A program made the translations under genes and the position numbers. This document shows, one piece after another, positions 25,175-41,248 of a stretch of 45,767 nt of DNA. Where the stretch lies: IMG/VR virus record IMGVR_UViG_2519103024_000003. One strand, 5' to 3'. The notes under the pieces were generated by a model. That model saw nothing but the letters and a program-made list of their open reading frames with translations. It had not been told where the DNA came from and made no database searches. Source of the DNA: a virus (taxonomy: Duplodnaviria > Heunggongvirae > Uroviricota > Caudoviricetes). Numbering within the stretch: the first letter of the stretch is position 1; each line of letters starts with the position of its first letter.

Positions 25175-25665
25175 TACTCCTCCTGCTGTAATTCCTCCTC
25201 ATCATCCGCACCTGCTTCGGTCACCCGCAGGGCTATCTGATCGCGCAGATCATCAATAATGGACTGAACACGGCTCACAGCGGCAGGCTGCAGGCCGCAG
25301 TCACGTTCCAGAATATCCGGTAATGTCTCCAGCACCTGCACGACCGCTTTTGCCCAGATGGCAAACTCCCGTCTGACATCACTGGCCGGAATGAGTTGTG
25401 CCGTTTCCTGTTCGAACTTAAGACGCTCACGTTCAGACTGATACCAGGCTTTGCGTTCATGTGGATCCATTTCGCCCTCAGCAACCGGCGGTGGTAACCC
25501 CATAAATTCAGTCAGAATATCGGTCAACCGGTATAGCTTGAGTTTGTCATGTCCACCAGCGGGACGAATGTTTTTCAGTCTTGCCACGACAGTCTGGCGG
25601 TGCAGACCAGATAAAGCCGCCAGTTGATTAATATTCAGCACCAGGTTTTTCAACTCATGATCCAT
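25174..25665 (-). CDS. nu1: Terminase small subunit (Nu1-like)
   Basis: 163 aa with N-terminal HTH (LNINQLAALSGLHRQTV); immediately upstream of the large subunit. Confidence 0.8.
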   Translation of the reverse strand: MDHELKNLVLNINQLAALSGLHRQTVVARLKNIRPAGGHDKLKLYRLTDILTEFMGLPPPVAEGEMDPHERKAWYQSERERLKFEQETAQLIPASDVRREFAIWAKAVVQVLETLPDILERDCGLQPAAVSRVQSIIDDLRDQIALRVTEAGADDEEELQQEE

Positions 25666-27257: not shown

Positions 27258-27566
27258 TGCTGGTTCAGAGTTAAAAAAACTATTATTTTTTTCATAATGT
27301 TACCGTAATATGTGAGTATCCATCGACTAGACACTAAGCAAAAAAGCTCCCGAAGGAGCCTTCATTTTCACTTTCTTAAATCTAACGACAGATGGCTAAC
27401 ATTTAAGTATTGTGAAATATTATCAAATGTAATCATCATTGATTTACAAAAGATACATTTTGCCCCGAAAGGATTTCTGTCAGAAACATCAAAAGATGAT
27501 GTTCTATACTGAGAACCATGGCAACACGGGCATCTAAAGTGAATATGGTTTGTAATATTTTCTACC

Positions 27567-27779
27567 TCAAAGTGCCACTACATGAACAGCTGCAGGGCCT
27601 TTAGGTCCGTTCTCAATACCAAATTCGACTTCCTGATTCTCAGTTAACGTTTTGAAATCGTTGCTCTGAATAGCTGAGAAATGCACAAACACATCTTTGC
27701 TACCATCTTTCGGCGTGATGAAACCAAAACCTTTTTCAGGGTTAAACCATTTCACTAAACCAGTCATTTTGTTAGACAT
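27567..27779 (-). CDS. cspI: Cold shock protein, CspA family (CspI-like)
   Basis: [23 protein letters not shown]... canonical cold-shock domain with RNP motifs. Confidence 0.85.
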
Positions 27780-28142
27780 CATTATTACCTTTTGAAGAAG
27801 TTAGCCCTTGGGCAGAATGGTCCGAAAAAAAATATCAGAGAGAAAAACCAACAAGGAAATCTCAAGAGGTACAAATAATAAAATTATAACAATGACTGCT
27901 TCAGATAATTTTGTAACAAACCAGAACACCATTAACGCATGATTAACCAACCATAGCAAGGATTACTTTTGTAAAGAAAAACACACGAATGAAACAATAG
28001 CTTTATTTATTAATAAAACGTGTCATTCTGTCTAATGACCTTTTATCTTACCCTTAAGATTTCAAGGATTTTGACTCATGGAAGAGTCCTTTTTATTTAA
28101 ATTTCACATTCAGCGCTAAAAATAATCCGATTTAATATTAAT

Positions 28143-30736: not shown

Positions 30737-31015
30737 TATTGTGGTACTTTTTGTGGGAGTCATCCACTTACGCACTTTGTTTTGCTATGCCAGCAGTTAG
30801 CTTCTGCTGTAAAACTATTCATGCAGCAAACCTGCACTTCACCACAATGGTTAGCATACTTTTCCTGATTAAGTTATTGCCAAATATGCTGGCCATTGTT
30901 TCATGTATTGGACCTCCTTACTATTTATTAAAGAGATCCAATATTCACCACTCTGTCTGTATCTCCACTCAGGCATCAGCCTTCTTCGTTATCGTATACA
31001 GACAAACTATGAATT

Positions 31016-31231
31016 TTAATCAGTAATTATGACATTTGCTGCTGCAGGACCTTTAGCACCACTCTCTACAGAGAAGGTAACCTTTTGACCTTCAAATAAG
31101 GTTCGAAAATTATCATTCTGAATCGCAGAAAAATGCACAAACACATCTTTACTACCATCAACAGGAGAAATAAAGCCAAAACCTTTATCAGCGTTAAACC
31201 ATTTTACTAAACCAGTCATTTTATTTGACAT
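31016..31231 (-). CDS. cspB: Cold shock protein, CspA family (CspB-like)
   Basis: [23 protein letters not shown]... cold-shock domain. Confidence 0.8.
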
Positions 31232-31531
31232 TCTACATTCCTTAACTTGAGCCTTTCGGCATAAATGGCTTGTATAACAGAAACGACTTCGTACTTAATT
31301 GGAGAGACTCAAAGAAGGAATAAGTGAATAACACCTGAAATGAGAACTGCTTTAGTAAACTACTTCGTATATCGTCTGTTCTTCAAACCGACGCAATCAT
31401 TAACGCATAGTTGAACATATGAAGCAATGTTTATTTTAGACATCCAGCCATCTTCAACCCCATCAAAAAACTATAGCTTTCTTCAGGAACGTGTGTATAG
31501 TGCGCCCAGTTATCAGTATTAAGGAATTTTT

Positions 31532-33922: not shown

Positions 33923-34738
33923 TCAATGAACGGTATCGAGCAGCTTTAACAGCTCAGGGAATCGGGATTCGAAGAAATGCGGCTGCGTCTCGCGCGGATT
34001 TGCAGGACTGGTGATGTTCTTGCCGAACATGCAGCCTTTCGCGGTCAGCGACCAGAATTTTTTGATGTTGTTAATCGCGGTACGACTGTATCGTTCGCGT
34101 TGTTCAACGATCCCCAGCTTCGCCATCTGGTGATATGCCTGATTAGCCGTCAGGCGGATACCATACTGCTTCAGCAGTGCACTCAGCGACAGCGTAGGGC
34201 GGCTTGAACCATCTGGCGCATCAGCAGGTGCATCAATGGCATAGATCGGCATAAGTTCAGGAAGACCAGCTACCTTTGATAATTTCTGGTATGCACCAAG
34301 TTTCGAGGAGTTTGACAGATTTAGAGTCTTTGCTGCTGATTCAAGCAGAATGACCCCGGATTTAATTTTGTCGGATGTGGTTTCTTCTGGTGATGAATTA
34401 TGAAGCGCATCAAAAGTACGTATCACTTTTAAGCTGAATGCCGGGCTGATCCACATTGCATATGCATAGACCAGCTCTTTACAGACATACGTCCCACCAT
34501 TGCGCCCCTGAATGGTGATGACAGGAATACTACGGGAATCTCCCGTAGTTTCTTCTTCCAATAATTCCACAAGAGCCTTCGTTTCAGGACGACGCATAAA
34601 CTCGTGAACTTCCAGCGAACGGGAGGAGCGATTCTCACCAGCGGCAAGAAGAGCAGCTTTCTGAAGGTCGTTAAGACAGTAGTTAGATTCGAAGTACTGG
34701 CGCACAGAAACGCCATCAATTACAAGCAACTGATTCAT
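33923..34738 (-). CDS. KilA-N domain protein (antirepressor-like)
   Basis: N-terminal MNQLLVIDGVSVRQ...KALVELL resembles the KilA-N domain; ATG at 34738 with GGAGAAA SD. Confidence 0.6.
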   Translation of the reverse strand: MNQLLVIDGVSVRQYFESNYCLNDLQKAALLAAGENRSSRSLEVHEFMRRPETKALVELLEEETTGDSRSIPVITIQGRNGGTYVCKELVYAYAMWISPAFSLKVIRTFDALHNSSPEETTSDKIKSGVILLESAAKTLNLSNSSKLGAYQKLSKVAGLPELMPIYAIDAPADAPDGSSRPTLSLSALLKQYGIRLTANQAYHQMAKLGIVEQRERYSRTAINNIKKFWSLTAKGCMFGKNITSPANPRETQPHFFESRFPELLKLLDTVH

Positions 34739-34900
34739 TGGTTTCTCCACAAATTTTTATCCACGAGCGGGACTGCACTCCCTTTTCGTTGATGCAGGAT
34801 GAACTTACTGCGATTTTTAATAGTTATCAAGGATACACTGTTCATAAATACAGTATCTTTAACGAGGTAATACCCAAATTTAGGGTGTTGCTCAATTCCG

Positions 34901-37578: not shown

Positions 37579-37811
37579 GCTGCACCTCCGAGATGCTTCA
37601 TGTTTTTTCCGGAGCAAAAGGCTATAAGCGGCATACTGATGCGGTAATTACGGCCCAGCGGTTCACAAATCACCTTCTGACATTCACGGTCAACCAGGCT
37701 AACACGTAGAACATGCCCTGCAGGCGTGGTGTACCACTGCCCAACTGTAGGAATTGATGTTTTTTTACGCTGAAGCAAACGGCAAATATTGAGGATCAAC
37801 GGATTAAGCAT
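37575..37811 (-). CDS. Small hypothetical protein (78 aa)
   Basis: ORF overlapping its neighbours by a few nt in the early operon. Confidence 0.35.
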   Translation of the reverse strand: MLNPLILNICRLLQRKKTSIPTVGQWYTTPAGHVLRVSLVDRECQKVICEPLGRNYRISMPLIAFCSGKNMKHLGGAA

Positions 37812-38640
37812 GACGATGCCCTCCGCTGATATTCAGGAGACGGTGAATATGAAAATTAGCCTTATCCGCCAGACGAATACGTTCAGCCTGCAAGTTAAGA
37901 AGGGTTTCTACCAAAACCTGATGCGCCTGCGGATCCGAAAGAGTTACCTTGCGCAGAGCACGTAGTGCAGTTGTTACATAACTGAGTTTATGTAAGTCTT
38001 CATCATTCAGACGAGTGAGGGCTGGGACAGTAGCCATGATGGCAGCCTCCGATAACAGTGAATTACCTTCACCACCGGAAACGCCAATTTCGCTGGTGGT
38101 GAACTGAACGGGGTTGGCGTAACCGGCGTTATCGGAAACCGGCGCACCTTTCGGTGCCCCCGTCCAGCCCACCATAATTTGGGTGTGCACAGACGCAGAC
38201 GATAAAAAAGACGCTGGCGCGTCATATATCGCCGATAACATTTCCAGGACGCCAATCCCGTCACCCGCTTTATAAGGTGCCTGAACAGTGTAACGTCCCG
38301 GAATGGCAGAATCAATGTGCTGGTGGTCCTTCACACTCAACAAAATCACGCCTGAATTTCCACAAAGGACTAAAGCACTCATGCGGGTAGTCTTTGCGAA
38401 GATAGATAACGCGCTGTGTTTCTGGTTCCCAACGAATAACATGGACATAAAGCCCTCTTCCGTCACGAAACCAGCGGTTAAGTTCCCGCACAACTCGCCC
38501 CCCACAGTCAGGTAAAGTTCTCTGTGGTTACTTACAGCCAGGTAATTTGGTAATCTGCATTCATGCCGTAACAACAGGTGTTCAGCGACACTGACCACCA
38601 GCTGTTGCGACAAACGGTTATTTGCCGTTAAACTGTTCAT
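37804..38640 (-). CDS. Hypothetical early-region protein (278 aa)
   Basis: ORF in operon context; no Walker motifs or recognised domain. Confidence 0.45.
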   Translation of the reverse strand: MNSLTANNRLSQQLVVSVAEHLLLRHECRLPNYLAVSNHRELYLTVGGELCGNLTAGFVTEEGFMSMLFVGNQKHSALSIFAKTTRMSALVLCGNSGVILLSVKDHQHIDSAIPGRYTVQAPYKAGDGIGVLEMLSAIYDAPASFLSSASVHTQIMVGWTGAPKGAPVSDNAGYANPVQFTTSEIGVSGGEGNSLLSEAAIMATVPALTRLNDEDLHKLSYVTTALRALRKVTLSDPQAHQVLVETLLNLQAERIRLADKANFHIHRLLNISGGHRHA

Positions 38641-39200
38641 GCGTTAGTTTCTCCACAGACACAAAACGCCACGACGCCCGGAGCTGCACACTCGCGGGCG
38701 TCACTCTTTTCTGGAGCGCAAAAGATTTTGTAGACCAGTGCTGCATGCTCTTGGAGCTTCGAAATTGACAGATACAACTCATCATTAATTGCTGTCTGCT
38801 CGTGTGGCTCCACGACCCCATCTTCGATTGCCGAACGAATCTGCTTTGAGTAATTCCCGATCTGTTCGATGACTTCCAGCAGGCGCTGGTTTATATCGGC
38901 GTTCTCTACTTCCTCAATTTCAGGAAGCGATACGAACACCCCACCAGCAGACTGTGCGACAGCATCCGCAATGTAGTGAGTGCCAGCCGCGCGCTGTAAA
39001 ACCATTGCCCATCCCAGCGGGAAAATCTGATCGCCATCGGCACGAAGGCGGTTAAATAATGCGTTCTCTGTTACATCCAGCCAGTCAGCTGCTTCAGCGT
39101 AACCACCCGGCAACGCTGCGATAGTTTTTCTGACAGCTTTCACGTACCACTCAGGCTGTTTTTCTACTTTCCAGTGATACTTACCCACGGTTAGCCTCAT
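38637..39200 (-). CDS. CII-like / YdaT-like regulatory protein
   Basis: Immediately downstream of the cro-like gene, as ydaT follows ydaS in Rac; assignment by position and weak recalled similarity. Confidence 0.5.
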   Translation of the reverse strand: MRLTVGKYHWKVEKQPEWYVKAVRKTIAALPGGYAEAADWLDVTENALFNRLRADGDQIFPLGWAMVLQRAAGTHYIADAVAQSAGGVFVSLPEIEEVENADINQRLLEVIEQIGNYSKQIRSAIEDGVVEPHEQTAINDELYLSISKLQEHAALVYKIFCAPEKSDARECAAPGVVAFCVCGETNA

Positions 39201-39432: not shown

Positions 39433-39522
39433 ACAATATGTACCTCCGGTATACATATTACATGATTGAAATGAACCTTCAAGATACTTGTACCTTATCG
39501 GTACAAAGGTTTTAATTTCGTT
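39433..39522. promoter_or_regulatory. Right operator/promoter region between cro-like and cI with two palindromic sites
   Basis: atgtacctccggtatacat (39438-39456) and ttgtaccttatcggtacaa (39488-39506), both TGTAC-N7-(G/A)TACA. Confidence 0.55.
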
Positions 39523-40197
39523 ATGAAAACAATCCATGACATCCGGCGGTCTAACGCCAGAAAACTGAGAGATGGTGTTGGCGGAAATTCATCCTTTGCC
39601 ACCATGATTGATCGCGAGCCAACCCAAACCAGCAGGTTTATGGGGGATGGCGCTACTAAAAATATCGGTGACAGCATGGCACGGCACATCGAAAAATGTT
39701 TCGACCTGCCTGTCGGATGGCTTGATCAAGAACACCAGACAACGAACATCACAAAAAAACCTGATGTTTCAATCACTAACAAACAAATAACGTTAGTCCC
39801 TGTCATATCATGGGTACAGGCCGGAGCATGGAAAGAAGTTGGCTATTCTGAGGTTGATTTGAGCACAGCAGAAACGTATCCCTGCCCTGTACCCTGTGGC
39901 GAAATGACTTATATCTTGCGGGTGATTGGTGATTCAATGATTGATGAGTACCGCCCTGGAGACATGATTTTTGTTGATCCCGAAGTCCCTGCCTGCCACG
40001 GTGACGACGTTATTGCATTGATGCACGATACAGGCGAAACCACCTTCAAGCGATTGATAGAAGATGGAACACAGCGTTATCTCAAAGCATTAAACCCAAA
40101 CTGGCCTGAGCCTTACATTAAGATTAACGGTAATTGCTCTATAATTGGTACAGTGATTTTCTCGGGAAAACCAAGAAGATACACAATAAAGGCCTAA
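39523..40197 (+). CDS. cI: CI-type repressor with C-terminal S24 (LexA-like) autopeptidase domain
   Basis: 224 aa; C-terminal LRVIGDSM...K peptidase signature; divergent from the cro-like gene. Confidence 0.85.
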   Translation: MKTIHDIRRSNARKLRDGVGGNSSFATMIDREPTQTSRFMGDGATKNIGDSMARHIEKCFDLPVGWLDQEHQTTNITKKPDVSITNKQITLVPVISWVQAGAWKEVGYSEVDLSTAETYPCPVPCGEMTYILRVIGDSMIDEYRPGDMIFVDPEVPACHGDDVIALMHDTGETTFKRLIEDGTQRYLKALNPNWPEPYIKINGNCSIIGTVIFSGKPRRYTIKA

Positions 40198-40209
40198 TCA
40201 ATATTTATG

Positions 40210-40232
40210 AACCTGCTTCGGCAGGTTTTTTT
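40210..40232 (+). terminator. Rho-independent terminator after cI
   Basis: acctgc-ttcg-gcaggt hairpin followed by TTTTTTT. Confidence 0.65.
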
Positions 40233-40234
40233 AT

Positions 40235-40268
40235 ACTTGACAATGTACCCATGAGATACATAATGTAT
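40235..40268 (+). promoter_or_regulatory. PL-like sigma70 promoter overlapping an operator palindrome
   Basis: TTGACA (40237-40242), 16-nt spacer, CATAAT (40259-40264); operator-like atgtacccatgagatacat (40243-40261) shares half-sites with the right operators. Confidence 0.55.
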
Positions 40269-40270
40269 CC

Positions 40271-40748
40271 AAAAGAAACATGAGGCAGGCAAGATTCAAA
40301 CAAAATTTGGTTGTAACACGGCGTATGGCACATGCGTCGTTAGCGGTCTGGGGACGTTAAAGGGGACAATCCACTCCCTGCTCGGACAAACAAACCAGGT
40401 AGCCGGAATGTGCAAGTCAATGATGATGCTGATAAGACGCCTAACCTGCGTGGCGGTTCGGTTTGACACCTGGGAAGAGACCAGGGTGCAACGATGAGGG
40501 CATTTATGGAACCGCGACAAAGTGTGGTGCCGTAACTGGCTAAGTGCTCTCAGCGTTGTGGTGAATGCGCAGGCTGATGCGCGAAAGACATTGCAGCTAT
40601 TGCGGAAAAGAGCTGTTCGGCGGGGCAATTAAACACCCGTGAGAGTCTGAAATAACCGCAAGCCGGAGATCAGCACCGGTCACCACAACAGCCACTGCTT
40701 TGGCGGTACCAGTTTGTACACTTGCTTCCGGCTGGTACCGCTCTTTTT
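40271..40748 (+). ncRNA. Candidate structured non-coding leader RNA between the PL-like promoter and a strong terminator
   Basis: No convincing ORF (longest about 29 codons); several hairpins (cctgg-gaagaga-ccagg; gcgca-ggctga-tgcgc); 10-bp stem gcggtaccag/ctggtaccgc (40703-40741) followed by TCTTTTT. Confidence 0.3.
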
Positions 40749-40885
40749 ACAAAACAGAGAAGAGCATCACCGGACGACGGGCTCATAACCCAATCCATCC
40801 GGGCGGCTGCCACCGCAGGTGTTCTTCTCTGTTTTGTGGAGAAACCAACCGACCTTGCAGGGTCGATATGATGAGGAGCAGCAAA

Positions 40886-41248
40886 ATGGCTAGCGAACGC
40901 AGTACTGATGTGCGGGCATTTATCGGGGAGCTGGACGGCGGCGTATTTGAAACCAAAATCGGCGCAGTTCTCAGTGAAGTCGCTTCAGGTGTGATGAACA
41001 CGAAAACCAAAGGTAAGGTCTCACTCAACCTGGAAATCGAACCATTTGATGAGAACCGTGTGAAAATCAAACACAAACTCTCATATGTTCGCCCGACTAA
41101 CCGCGGGAAAATTTCCGAAGAAGACACCACCGAAACGCCGATGTATGTCAATCGCGGTGGTCGCCTGACTATTCTGCAGGAAGACCAGGGACAATTACTG
41201 ACTCTTGCCGGTGAACCTGACGGAAAACTCCGCGCAGCAGGTCATTAA
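40886..41248 (+). CDS. YfdP-like prophage protein (about 120 aa)
   Basis: ATG at 40886 with AGGAG SD; recalled as the CPS-53 yfdP family preceding yfdQ. Confidence 0.5.
   Translation: MASERSTDVRAFIGELDGGVFETKIGAVLSEVASGVMNTKTKGKVSLNLEIEPFDENRVKIKHKLSYVRPTNRGKISEEDTTETPMYVNRGGRLTILQEDQGQLLTLAGEPDGKLRAAGH

Follow-up and report, generated by a model that had tools for sequence, protein, structure and literature searches.

The closest described counterpart of the RNA discussed here is sRNA-17 of Escherichia coli K1 RS218, a small RNA (sRNA) of 193 nucleotides (nt) that was defined by 5′/3′ rapid amplification of cDNA ends (RACE) and Northern blot, lies upstream of yfdP in an mEp460-like prophage and is without a relative in Rfam (Sun et al. 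2020, PMC7719688). The study presented it as an independent sRNA under ArcA control whose relatives are confined to enteric bacteria and mEp460 (PMC7719688). By map position, the nearest systems are two: in lambda, N with nutL follows directly after the early-left promoter, pL, and its operator, OL; in the N-less lambdoid phage HK022, a structured RNA, putL, lies just after pL, and there the RNA, not a protein, acts. To our knowledge, a large lambdoid group including SfV, cdtI, mEp460 and several Stx2 phages has no N gene, and we know of no described occupant of its position. Here we analyze that position in a viral DNA of 45,767 nt (IMG/VR record IMGVR_UViG_2519103024_000003; the window, below), a complete lambdoid prophage of the SfV/cdtI/mEp460/Ayreon type whose orientation is inverted relative to the lambda map. 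The studied interval spans ~690 nt, from the stop codon of the cI-like repressor gene to yfdP.

We consider it probable that the repressor-controlled early-left transcript of this lambdoid prophage of SfV/mEp460 type begins with this interval, which stays untranslated. The interval likely carries a tandem of two portable RNA genes, modules A and B, closed by a terminator, and would serve both as a source of processed, stable RNA and as an attenuator of the early-left operon. The suggestion of an earlier note on this DNA, that a non-coding, terminator-closed unit stands in place of N, is supported.

Module B and sRNA-17

We located sRNA-17 on the window via its published primers (Table S2, PMC7719688). 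All 16 primers and probes map to the window with zero or one mismatch, the probe and the RACE primers on the expected strands, and the full-length primers occupy 40554-40586 and 40716-40747 with no mismatches. By this mapping, sRNA-17 is essentially the same sequence at the same locus and corresponds to 40555-40747 on the plus strand, a stretch made up of module B and the terminator hairpin. It begins at the first base of the stem that closes B, and its 3′ end, placed at 40747 by 3′ RACE (PMC7719688), lies in the U-run of the terminator. The fragment used as the sRNA-17 promoter in the published gel shifts is module A (40305-40554), and the published amplicon for quantitative reverse-transcription PCR runs from 40305 to 40700. 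Because this amplicon spans both modules, an A–B co-transcript exists. The literal sequence of the element had no match in the literature searched.

Module B (40555-40689, plus strand) is a cloverleaf-like RNA and scores 77.4 bits (E = 1.8e-18) with R2, a covariance model built from 26 family members. Its closing stem, P1, pairs 40555-63 with 40681-89 and is followed by a junction AAU (40564-66), a first hairpin, H1 (stem 40567-70/40579-82, loop 40571-78), a variable domain (40584-40658) and a second hairpin, H2 (stem 40662-66/40676-80, loop 40667-75), and six base pairs between GCUGAU (40573-78) and AUCAGC (40669-74) join the two loops in a kissing interaction. Both conserved hairpins, GCGC[AGGCUGAU]GCGC for H1 and GCCGG[AGAUCAGCR]CCGGY for H2, are exact in the window. 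The family layout, from 5′ to 3′, is a stem P1 strand of free sequence, AAU, H1, a single base, the variable domain, H2 and the 3′ strand of stem P1, which abuts H2 with no spacer. Variable domains range from ~23 to more than 150 nt and whole elements from 78 to 241 nt.

As judged by sequence comparison, the closing stem, both hairpins and the kiss are backed by compensatory changes. Stem P1 measures 7-10 bp in 101 of 122 distinct copies, reaches at least six pairs abutting H2 in 118 of 121 loci, and shows compensatory changes at 7 of 8 pairs with 100% of cells paired, in elements retrieved by a finder that demanded pairing there. The H2 stem has CCAG/CUGG, CUGG/CCAG and CAGG/CCUG variants, and the copy in phage P1 shows stem covariation in both hairpins (H1 GCAC/GUGC, H2 GUCGG/CCGAC). 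For the kiss, scans aimed at loop variants returned eight loci with the H1 loop GCCGAU, six of which have the matching H2 loop AUCGGC (U-A to C-G), and one further locus (L369) combines GUUGAU with AUCAAC (C-G to U-A). Ribozymes of the hammerhead and HDV-like (theta) types were considered on the basis of sequence and topology and set aside: the two termini of the element are base-paired, and the core motifs expected of such ribozymes are not conserved.

The family is broad. Viral contigs scanned with the exact 21-nt 5′ motif gave at least 120 loci, and a one-genome-per-species scan with the 3′ motif added 46 complete elements; because the seeds were exact matches and the listings are lower bounds, both the size of the family and the uniformity of H1 are biased. 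Among the hosts are Pseudomonas, Xanthomonas, Stenotrophomonas, Burkholderia, Pandoraea, Thauera, Massilia, Pelagibacterium, Geminicoccus and enterics, and the carriers are lambdoid, P1-like, T1-like and Ackermannviridae phages as well as prophages across Proteobacteria. A few elements come from metagenome bins assigned to Coriobacteriia, Phycisphaerales and Syntrophomonadaceae and are listed with caution. In the P1-like plasmid RCS47, B lies just after tRNA-Thr and is 95% identical, variable domain included; the T1-like phage swi2 and an Ackermannviridae phage of Klebsiella carry B with a different interior. Within the whole window, R2 detects no second copy. In the Rfam comparison that the earlier note had proposed, Rfam 15 holds no matching family for either A or B (window at gathering scores, interval at E ≤ 10, and 16 related loci). 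The family has been set apart from Rfam 15 only, and a catalogue of 10,006 viral structured-RNA candidates (PMC10690425) may include the B motif.

Phage P1 (NC_005856) itself has two B-family elements on the plus strand of the locus examined (L007), at 1309-1408 (62.9 bits) and 1570-1691 (26.8 bits), or about 69818-69917 and 70079-70200 in record coordinates. They lie in the stretch from trnT to tciA, antisense to the annotated plp and upl open reading frames (ORFs), and each is preceded by the flank GTGYTCTTWCCGTTG. With module A placed before ban, the leader of the ban operon looks like a non-coding RNA array, and plp and upl may be mis-annotations. A different variant occurs in Ayreon (L001, ~2855-2960), cdtI, 2H10 and Stx2c phages, where the closing stem and flanks of B are kept and the interior differs (GGTAATCCGCGAAATGGCGCGG followed by a long hairpin). 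This interior is left unscored by the B model and may represent a second class of the same kind of RNA.

The genomic placement of B resembles that of tRNA genes. The density of tRNA genes within 400 nt of B exceeds that in the rest of these loci 27-fold, and of 31 such genes 29 have the orientation of B. A canonical terminator follows within 45 nt in 20 of the 129 distinct copies, compared with one in shuffled flanks. Family members often stand alone beside a tRNA or a terminator; in swi2, B and tRNA-Met form a two-gene islet between opposite-strand genes. No protein gene is a constant neighbor, the contexts varying among repressor, yfdPQR, lysis genes and tRNAs. The B family thus behaves as RNA genes, not as leaders. 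A promoter of its own is not apparent across the family, since TANNNT precedes stem P1 in 14 of 129 copies and in 12 of 129 after shuffling; a few copies have clear -10 boxes. As separate observations, in two elements ARAGORN predicts an 86-nt tRNA-Pro(CGG) nested in the variable domain (L070 581-666, L103 3063-3148), and the variable domains of four others (L021, L094, L098 and L113) contain T-arm-like hairpins (GGTTCGAnTCC), accompanied in L094 by a D-arm-like hairpin.

The early-left leader and its modules

The interval opens with the intrinsic terminator of the cI/ymfK-like gene (40209-40228, plus strand), which a terminator scan recognized as an 8-bp stem followed by TTTTTAT. Directly behind it, pL occupies 40237-40264 on the plus strand, with a -35 element TTGACA (40237-42), a 16-nt spacer and a -10 element CATAAT (40259-64). 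It matches 11 of 12 consensus positions, and no other sigma-70-like site on this strand between the cI stop codon and yfdP reaches 9 of 12; its spacing would place the transcription start at ~40271. Overlapping it at 40244-40260 is OL, TGTACCCATGAGATACA, a 17-mer of the same type as both right operators. The motif TGTACC-N7-TACA has exactly three exact copies in the 45.8-kb window, all at immunity promoters: two in the cI–cro intergenic region (39439-39455 and 39489-39505) and the third over pL. With one mismatch allowed, there are seven matches against 1.45 expected, and none of 100 shuffles reached seven. The near-consensus promoter with an operator related to the right operators, as described in the earlier note, is indeed present, and because the third operator copy overlaps it and the shuffles never match the count, its reading as the repressor-controlled early-left promoter is well supported.

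At the other end of the unit, the predicted stem and T-run also stood up. The intrinsic terminator at 40703-40748 (plus strand), our candidate attenuator, consists of a 10-bp stem (GCGGTACCAG at 40703-40712, CTGGTACCGC at 40732-40741) with a 19-nt loop and a TCTTTTT tail (40742-48), and the published RNA end falls within it. The automatic scan overlooked this terminator because its loops were limited to 8 nt.

The leader between these signals is pieced together. BLAST comparison with phage and E. coli collections divides the interval into separately travelling pieces. Its start (40265-40304, plus strand) is linked to immunity, homology to phages of other immunity beginning at 40290-40307; from there on, the leader is common to phages with unrelated repressors and to many E. 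coli prophages. Phage mEp460, for example, has a different repressor and the same leader from 40290 onward, and part of the leader is found in 2645 of 5426 complete E. coli genomes. Module A follows (~40305-40554, plus strand), a conserved structured RNA with a core (~40305-40495) common to phage P1, RCS47 and epsilon15-like phages and a 3′ extension (40496-40554) present only in a subset. In its three other settings it is ~78-81% identical: in phage P1 it starts 2 nt after the tRNA, with trnI on one side and ban on the other, in RCS47 it takes the equivalent position, and in epsilon15-like phages (TL-2011b, O157 typing phage 9) its end is flush against a tRNA-Arg gene. Module A occurs without B in phage P1 and O157 typing phage 9, and B without A in RCS47, swi2 and UPM2146. 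On these sequence distributions, the interval is a mosaic of independently mobile structured-RNA modules, not a single leader element.

The earlier note had taken many inverted repeats as a sign of structure. Here its conclusion stands and its argument does not: the single-sequence folding energies of A and B are ordinary (z ~ -0.6), so the structural support comes from comparative data, which for module A amount to seven pairs with compensatory changes in the consensus fold and for B to the changes described above. Module A, like B, is present in a single copy in the window.

Downstream of the terminator, the 5′ untranslated region (UTR) of yfdP (40749-40885, plus strand) is also structured, with long hairpin arms (40749-73/40813-37), a small hairpin (40848-67) and a Shine-Dalgarno sequence GAGGAG at 40873-78. 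The region 40690-40900 folds exceptionally well compared with shuffles (z = -6.7). We observed that the hairpin with 25-nt arms immediately follows the terminator and pairs with the terminator's U-run in the read-through RNA. The piece from the terminator to yfdP moves together with yfdP in SfV, SfIV and others, and in SfV and SfIV it is present without a canonical B. It contains a 16-mer, TTTGTGGAGAAACCAA, at 40833-40848, that recurs on the minus strand at 34738-34753 and 38643-38657, where it sits in the sense orientation just ahead of two genes of the rightward early operon (pR) and carries their Shine-Dalgarno sequences. No start codon follows the copy in the pL leader, which looks like a relic of a mosaic joint. 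We rejected this repeat as a nut-type repeat of both early operons, as it is a ribosome-binding-site motif before genes.

Among the neighboring genes, the LexA-like repressor gene, cI/ymfK-like, occupies 39523-40197 on the plus strand, and cro starts at ~39435 and runs leftward. The first early-left gene, yfdP (40886-41248, plus strand), is placed by the annotation of a related prophage, and yfdQ, yfdR and a TorI-like excisionase gene follow in this order. Elsewhere on the minus strand lie two cspA-type thermoregulator leaders, at 30953-31392 (156.5 bits) and 27521-27937 (110.1 bits), and because of these the prophage appears to carry cold-shock-protein-type genes with structured 5′ UTRs.

Alternative readings of the interval

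Could the interval encode a small protein? There are two candidates: an N-like arginine-rich peptide (40280-40360), encoded by the 26-codon ORF that the earlier note had offered as a possible short basic peptide, and a reverse 110-codon ORF annotated in some phage records. The 26-codon ORF is indeed basic, and hypothetical-protein ORFs are annotated in this interval in the mEp460, Ayreon and cdtI records. Against this stand the patterns in 89 distinct homologues with 85% identity or more: codon-position periodicity and a third-position excess are absent from every candidate ORF, variable sites being distributed 6/4/6 over the codon positions of the 26-codon ORF and 40/31/31 over those of the reverse ORF, and indels that shift the frame are common. 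In phage Ayreon, the ATG of the 26-codon ORF is ATA; the ORF starts upstream of 40290, outside the region conserved with mEp460, and no Shine-Dalgarno sequence precedes it. Finally, the NCBI automated annotation of a 98.6%-identical E. coli prophage leaves the space between cI (ymfK) and yfdP empty. The view that ~480 nt contain no credible ORF is borne out by the absent periodicity, the frameshifting indels, the lost start codon and the empty annotation; the basic peptide falls with the same observations, and we regard a protein gene here as scarcely credible.

A second reading replaces N by RNA. Module A or B, as part of the nascent transcript, would bind RNA polymerase and, functionally like HK022 put, act in cis as a processive antiterminator that passes 40747 and later terminators. 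The element does lie just after pL in a phage group without an N homologue, an intrinsic terminator separates pL from the first gene, and very high sequence conservation, as seen in both hairpins of B, would be in keeping with a conserved binding partner such as RNA polymerase; the same idea has been published as a speculation for the related phage LLS (PMC12315714). By eye, moreover, both strands of the first hairpin of module A (ACGGCG-loop-CAUGCGUCG, 40318-40340) resemble stem I of HK022 putL (L373, 3006-3035), a likeness detected neither by BLAST nor by a put model. That model, R1, was built from five putL sequences (HK022, HK639, phiEt88, CobraSix and S9-5) and recovers the putR sites of HK022 (35.4 bits, E = 3e-8) and phiEt88 (E ~ 3e-8), on which it was not trained, yet its best match in the window, at 25563, is no better than noise (7.5 bits, E = 4.9), and Ayreon, mEp460, P1, RCS47 and typing phage 9 are without a match. 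Because the model finds untrained putR sites and nothing here, the unit does not appear put-like. Neither A nor B has a second copy in the pR operon, the RNA ends in vivo at the 40747 terminator, and no further intrinsic terminator is predicted on the plus strand of the early-left operon. Many members, in addition, stand directly before a terminator or form RNA-only islets with one tRNA in lytic phages. The put-like element offered in the earlier note is therefore not sustained by the model, the copy number, the RNA end or the isolated members, and we hold antitermination by A or B to be very unlikely.

Possible signals of the N/nut type were also compared. The boxA-like strings are TGCTCTC at 40546-52 and CGCTCTTTTTACAA at 40739-52, the latter recognized by eye only; GCTCTTTWW is not enriched in the window, and no boxB-like repeat is common to the leader and the pR operon. 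We did not adopt a boxA reading of the conserved 5′ flank GTGCTCTTTCC and of the terminator tail, which is specific to one lineage and without statistical support. Separately, in enterobacterial copies of B, GTGCTCT is fixed 20 nt before AAU, in 22 of the 129 distinct copies (window flank 40541-40554), and TGCTCTTT is the start of the rrn boxA. This flank could be a Nus-factor site or a processing signal, statistical support again being lacking.

As published, sRNA-17 would be an ordinary base-pairing sRNA with its own ArcA-regulated promoter, tuning host genes (glnP, fdnG, tdcG, fim), and its pL context would be incidental. Several data favor this view: the Northern signal is present in uninduced cells and rises in stationary phase, ArcA shifts the upstream fragment, 48 genes are altered in the deletion strain, and virulence phenotypes are reported (PMC7719688). 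A 3′ end at a terminator is likewise typical of Hfq-type sRNAs. The gel shift, however, required 20-80 μM protein, and the host-gene changes are ~2-fold, with no pairing site demonstrated (PMC7719688). No sigma-70-like promoter is found inside module A, the supposed promoter fragment, which is itself a conserved RNA module that occurs in phage P1. Nor would a host-specific seed explain a core that is nearly invariant across Proteobacteria and in lytic phages. We judge this reading to be unlikely.

The effect of deleting the RNA bears on another alternative. When 40580-40697 was replaced by a resistance cassette, reads for yfdP rose from 0.5 to 47 and those for yfdR from 0 to 8 (PMC7719688). 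This rise, ~100-fold for yfdP, fits a barrier function of the leader, and it also speaks for an immunity-type regulatory RNA of the P4 CI or P1/P7 C4 type, processed from the leader and repressing the early-left genes by pairing with the same transcript. Such RNAs are processed by RNase P and have their 5′ end at a stem base. Here, too, the source is the leader of the operon itself, the 5′ end lies at a stem base, and the phage already has C4- and IsrK-type RNAs in its pR operon. The pairing expected of such an RNA was not found: in the prophage, A and B have no more antisense matches than chance predicts, and the variable domain of B has no complementarity of at least 10 nt anywhere in the window. 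The conserved loops pair mutually, not with a target. Because the 95%-identical B sits in RCS47, a plasmid without yfdP, self-regulation by pairing is disfavored. The Rfam C4 model does not match B, the C4/CI/IsrK models (RF01695, RF01394) give nothing in 40100-41000 at E ≤ 10, and the deletion result is confounded by the cassette. An immunity RNA at this site accordingly strikes us as improbable. In the pR operon, the Rfam matches to C4 (82.8 bits) and IsrK (55.4 bits) fall at 38092-38280 on the minus strand, inside a 278-codon ORF (37804-38640) recorded as an 'immunity region' protein in SfV and Ayreon. The segment resembles an RNA region of the immI type, and we doubt the ORF.

Proposed role and comparison with known systems

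In conjunction with the published RNA ends, we propose the following model for the leader as an attenuating, processed stable-RNA unit. The pL transcript, initiated at ~40271, would cross module A and then B and would mostly end at 40747, yielding a precursor of ~477 nt. A cut at the base of stem P1, between 40554 and 40555, would free the 193-nt sRNA-17 and, presumably, a separate A RNA. Derepression would then produce abundant non-coding RNA, and only the read-through fraction would express yfdP, yfdQ, yfdR and the excision genes, the terminator probably acting as an attenuator. The unit would supply trans-acting stable RNAs that phages shuffle and place like tRNA genes. Because no sigma-70-like promoter lies inside A, a promoter dedicated to the 193-nt RNA is unlikely, and the end at 40555 most plausibly arises by processing, through RNase P or RNase E, rather than by initiation.

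Several points weigh against this model. Position 40555 could be a start site, as the authors of the sRNA-17 study treat A as an ArcA-binding promoter (PMC7719688), and the RACE method used is blind to the difference between primary and processed ends (PMC7719688). The RNA was detected in an uninduced lysogen, in which pL is expected to be repressed (PMC7719688); spontaneous induction, read-through from cI and a weak internal promoter are candidate sources. We infer, rather than observe, that RNase P or RNase E makes the cut. The 19-nt loop of the terminator is long, the rise of yfdP and yfdR may owe to the inserted cassette, and the structure of module A is only partly resolved. The statistics for stem P1 are partly circular because of the pairing demanded by the element finder, and the database scans were seeded with the exact H1 sequence, which accounts for its lack of variation in most of the elements sampled. 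No binding partner emerged from the analysis.

What might such an RNA act upon? A core that is nearly invariant across distant hosts, together with a tRNA-like shape and neighborhood, suggests a conserved partner that handles tRNA-shaped RNA; that this is a host tRNA-processing enzyme or a tRNA-directed defense nuclease is at best a doubtful guess. More broadly, and tentatively, we raise the possibility that phages make a new class of RNAs shaped like tRNA, of which the B core would be the first member to be studied. Through their nearly invariant kissing hairpins, these would either bind a conserved cellular or defense factor that recognizes tRNA-like RNA, as decoys or inhibitors present from the very outset of infection or induction, or serve as self-processing cassettes by which the cleavage sites of untranslated phage transcripts are marked. 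If so, the plp/upl region of phage P1 and the pL leaders of N-less lambdoid phages would be arrays of such RNAs, and if the tRNA-like shape reflects function, they would be candidates for RNA-based interference with tRNA-handling enzymes or tRNA-targeting defenses. Independently of function, both modules also lie in the ban operon of phage P1, on the other strand from two annotated ORFs, so that the classical annotation may need correction, and the B family offers 78-nt minimal versions for structural work, with members of 78-84 nt in loci L178, L179 and L185.

The likeness of B to tRNA lies in its cloverleaf topology, in which a 4-bp arm stands for the D arm, a 5-bp arm, stacked without a spacer on the closing stem, for the T arm and a variable domain for the anticodon arm, as well as in its placement inside or beside tRNA arrays. 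Unlike a tRNA, B has no anticodon loop, its loops of 8 and 9 nt form six Watson-Crick pairs in place of the elbow, and three bases rather than two follow the closing stem. It is not called as a tRNA: ARAGORN reports no tRNA gene in the window, and the Rfam tRNA model has no match there.

Compared with the systems of the same map position, the locus differs from lambda in having no N-like ORF and, judged by repeats shared with the pR operon, no apparent boxB hairpin, the boxA-like strings being its only resemblance to nutL and not enriched. In HK022, put consists of two stem-loops of ~70 nt, with one copy per early operon, whereas the leader here has two unrelated single-copy modules that match put in neither sequence nor structure, and its RNA stops at the next terminator instead of passing it. 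The position of N is thus taken by an RNA-only unit and not by a put-type antiterminator.

Of the three readings considered in the earlier note, a processed sRNA like DicF comes closest: a 193-nt RNA is mapped, with its 5′ end at a conserved stem base inside a longer co-transcript. The DicF model itself (RF00039) has no match in the window at the gathering score and none in the interval at E ≤ 10. DicF, in Qin, is likewise an sRNA processed from a repressor-controlled early operon, and the ban operon of phage P1 brings together a dicF-like region, tRNAs, B-type elements and module A; DicF, however, is a short linear base-pairing RNA, whereas B forms a four-way junction. The P4 CI and P1/P7 C4 RNAs (RF01695) share with B the properties of small, stable, leader-derived phage RNAs with a closing stem, two hairpins and processing at the stem base. 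Their loops pair with a target transcript, whereas the conserved loops of B form pairs between themselves; B also contains an extra variable domain, for which target complementarity was not found in the window. StxS (PMC7547250) is similar in being a regulatory RNA made from a strong phage promoter directly before an intrinsic terminator. It arises by early termination of the pR′ transcript, from the late promoter of Stx phages (PMC7547250), has no sequence in common with the unit and stands outside any conserved structural family. The Pas sRNAs of pathogenic E. coli were set aside, as they come from a different locus in the late region.

A phage sRNA made from an early leader is therefore a known kind of molecule, represented by DicF, P4 CI RNA, P1 C4 RNA and StxS; its fold and family are not. 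The RNA species itself is already known as sRNA-17, reported as a host-adaptation factor of meningitis E. coli, and the family placement alters how its phenotypes are to be read. Compared with its published description (PMC7719688), which recognized neither the pL-leader position nor the fold, neither the family across Proteobacteria and phages nor the supposed promoter as a second RNA module, what appears to be new is that sRNA-17 derives from the N position of the pL transcript, that another RNA module lies ahead of it, and that its core belongs to a large, covarying, non-Rfam family that extends to phage P1.

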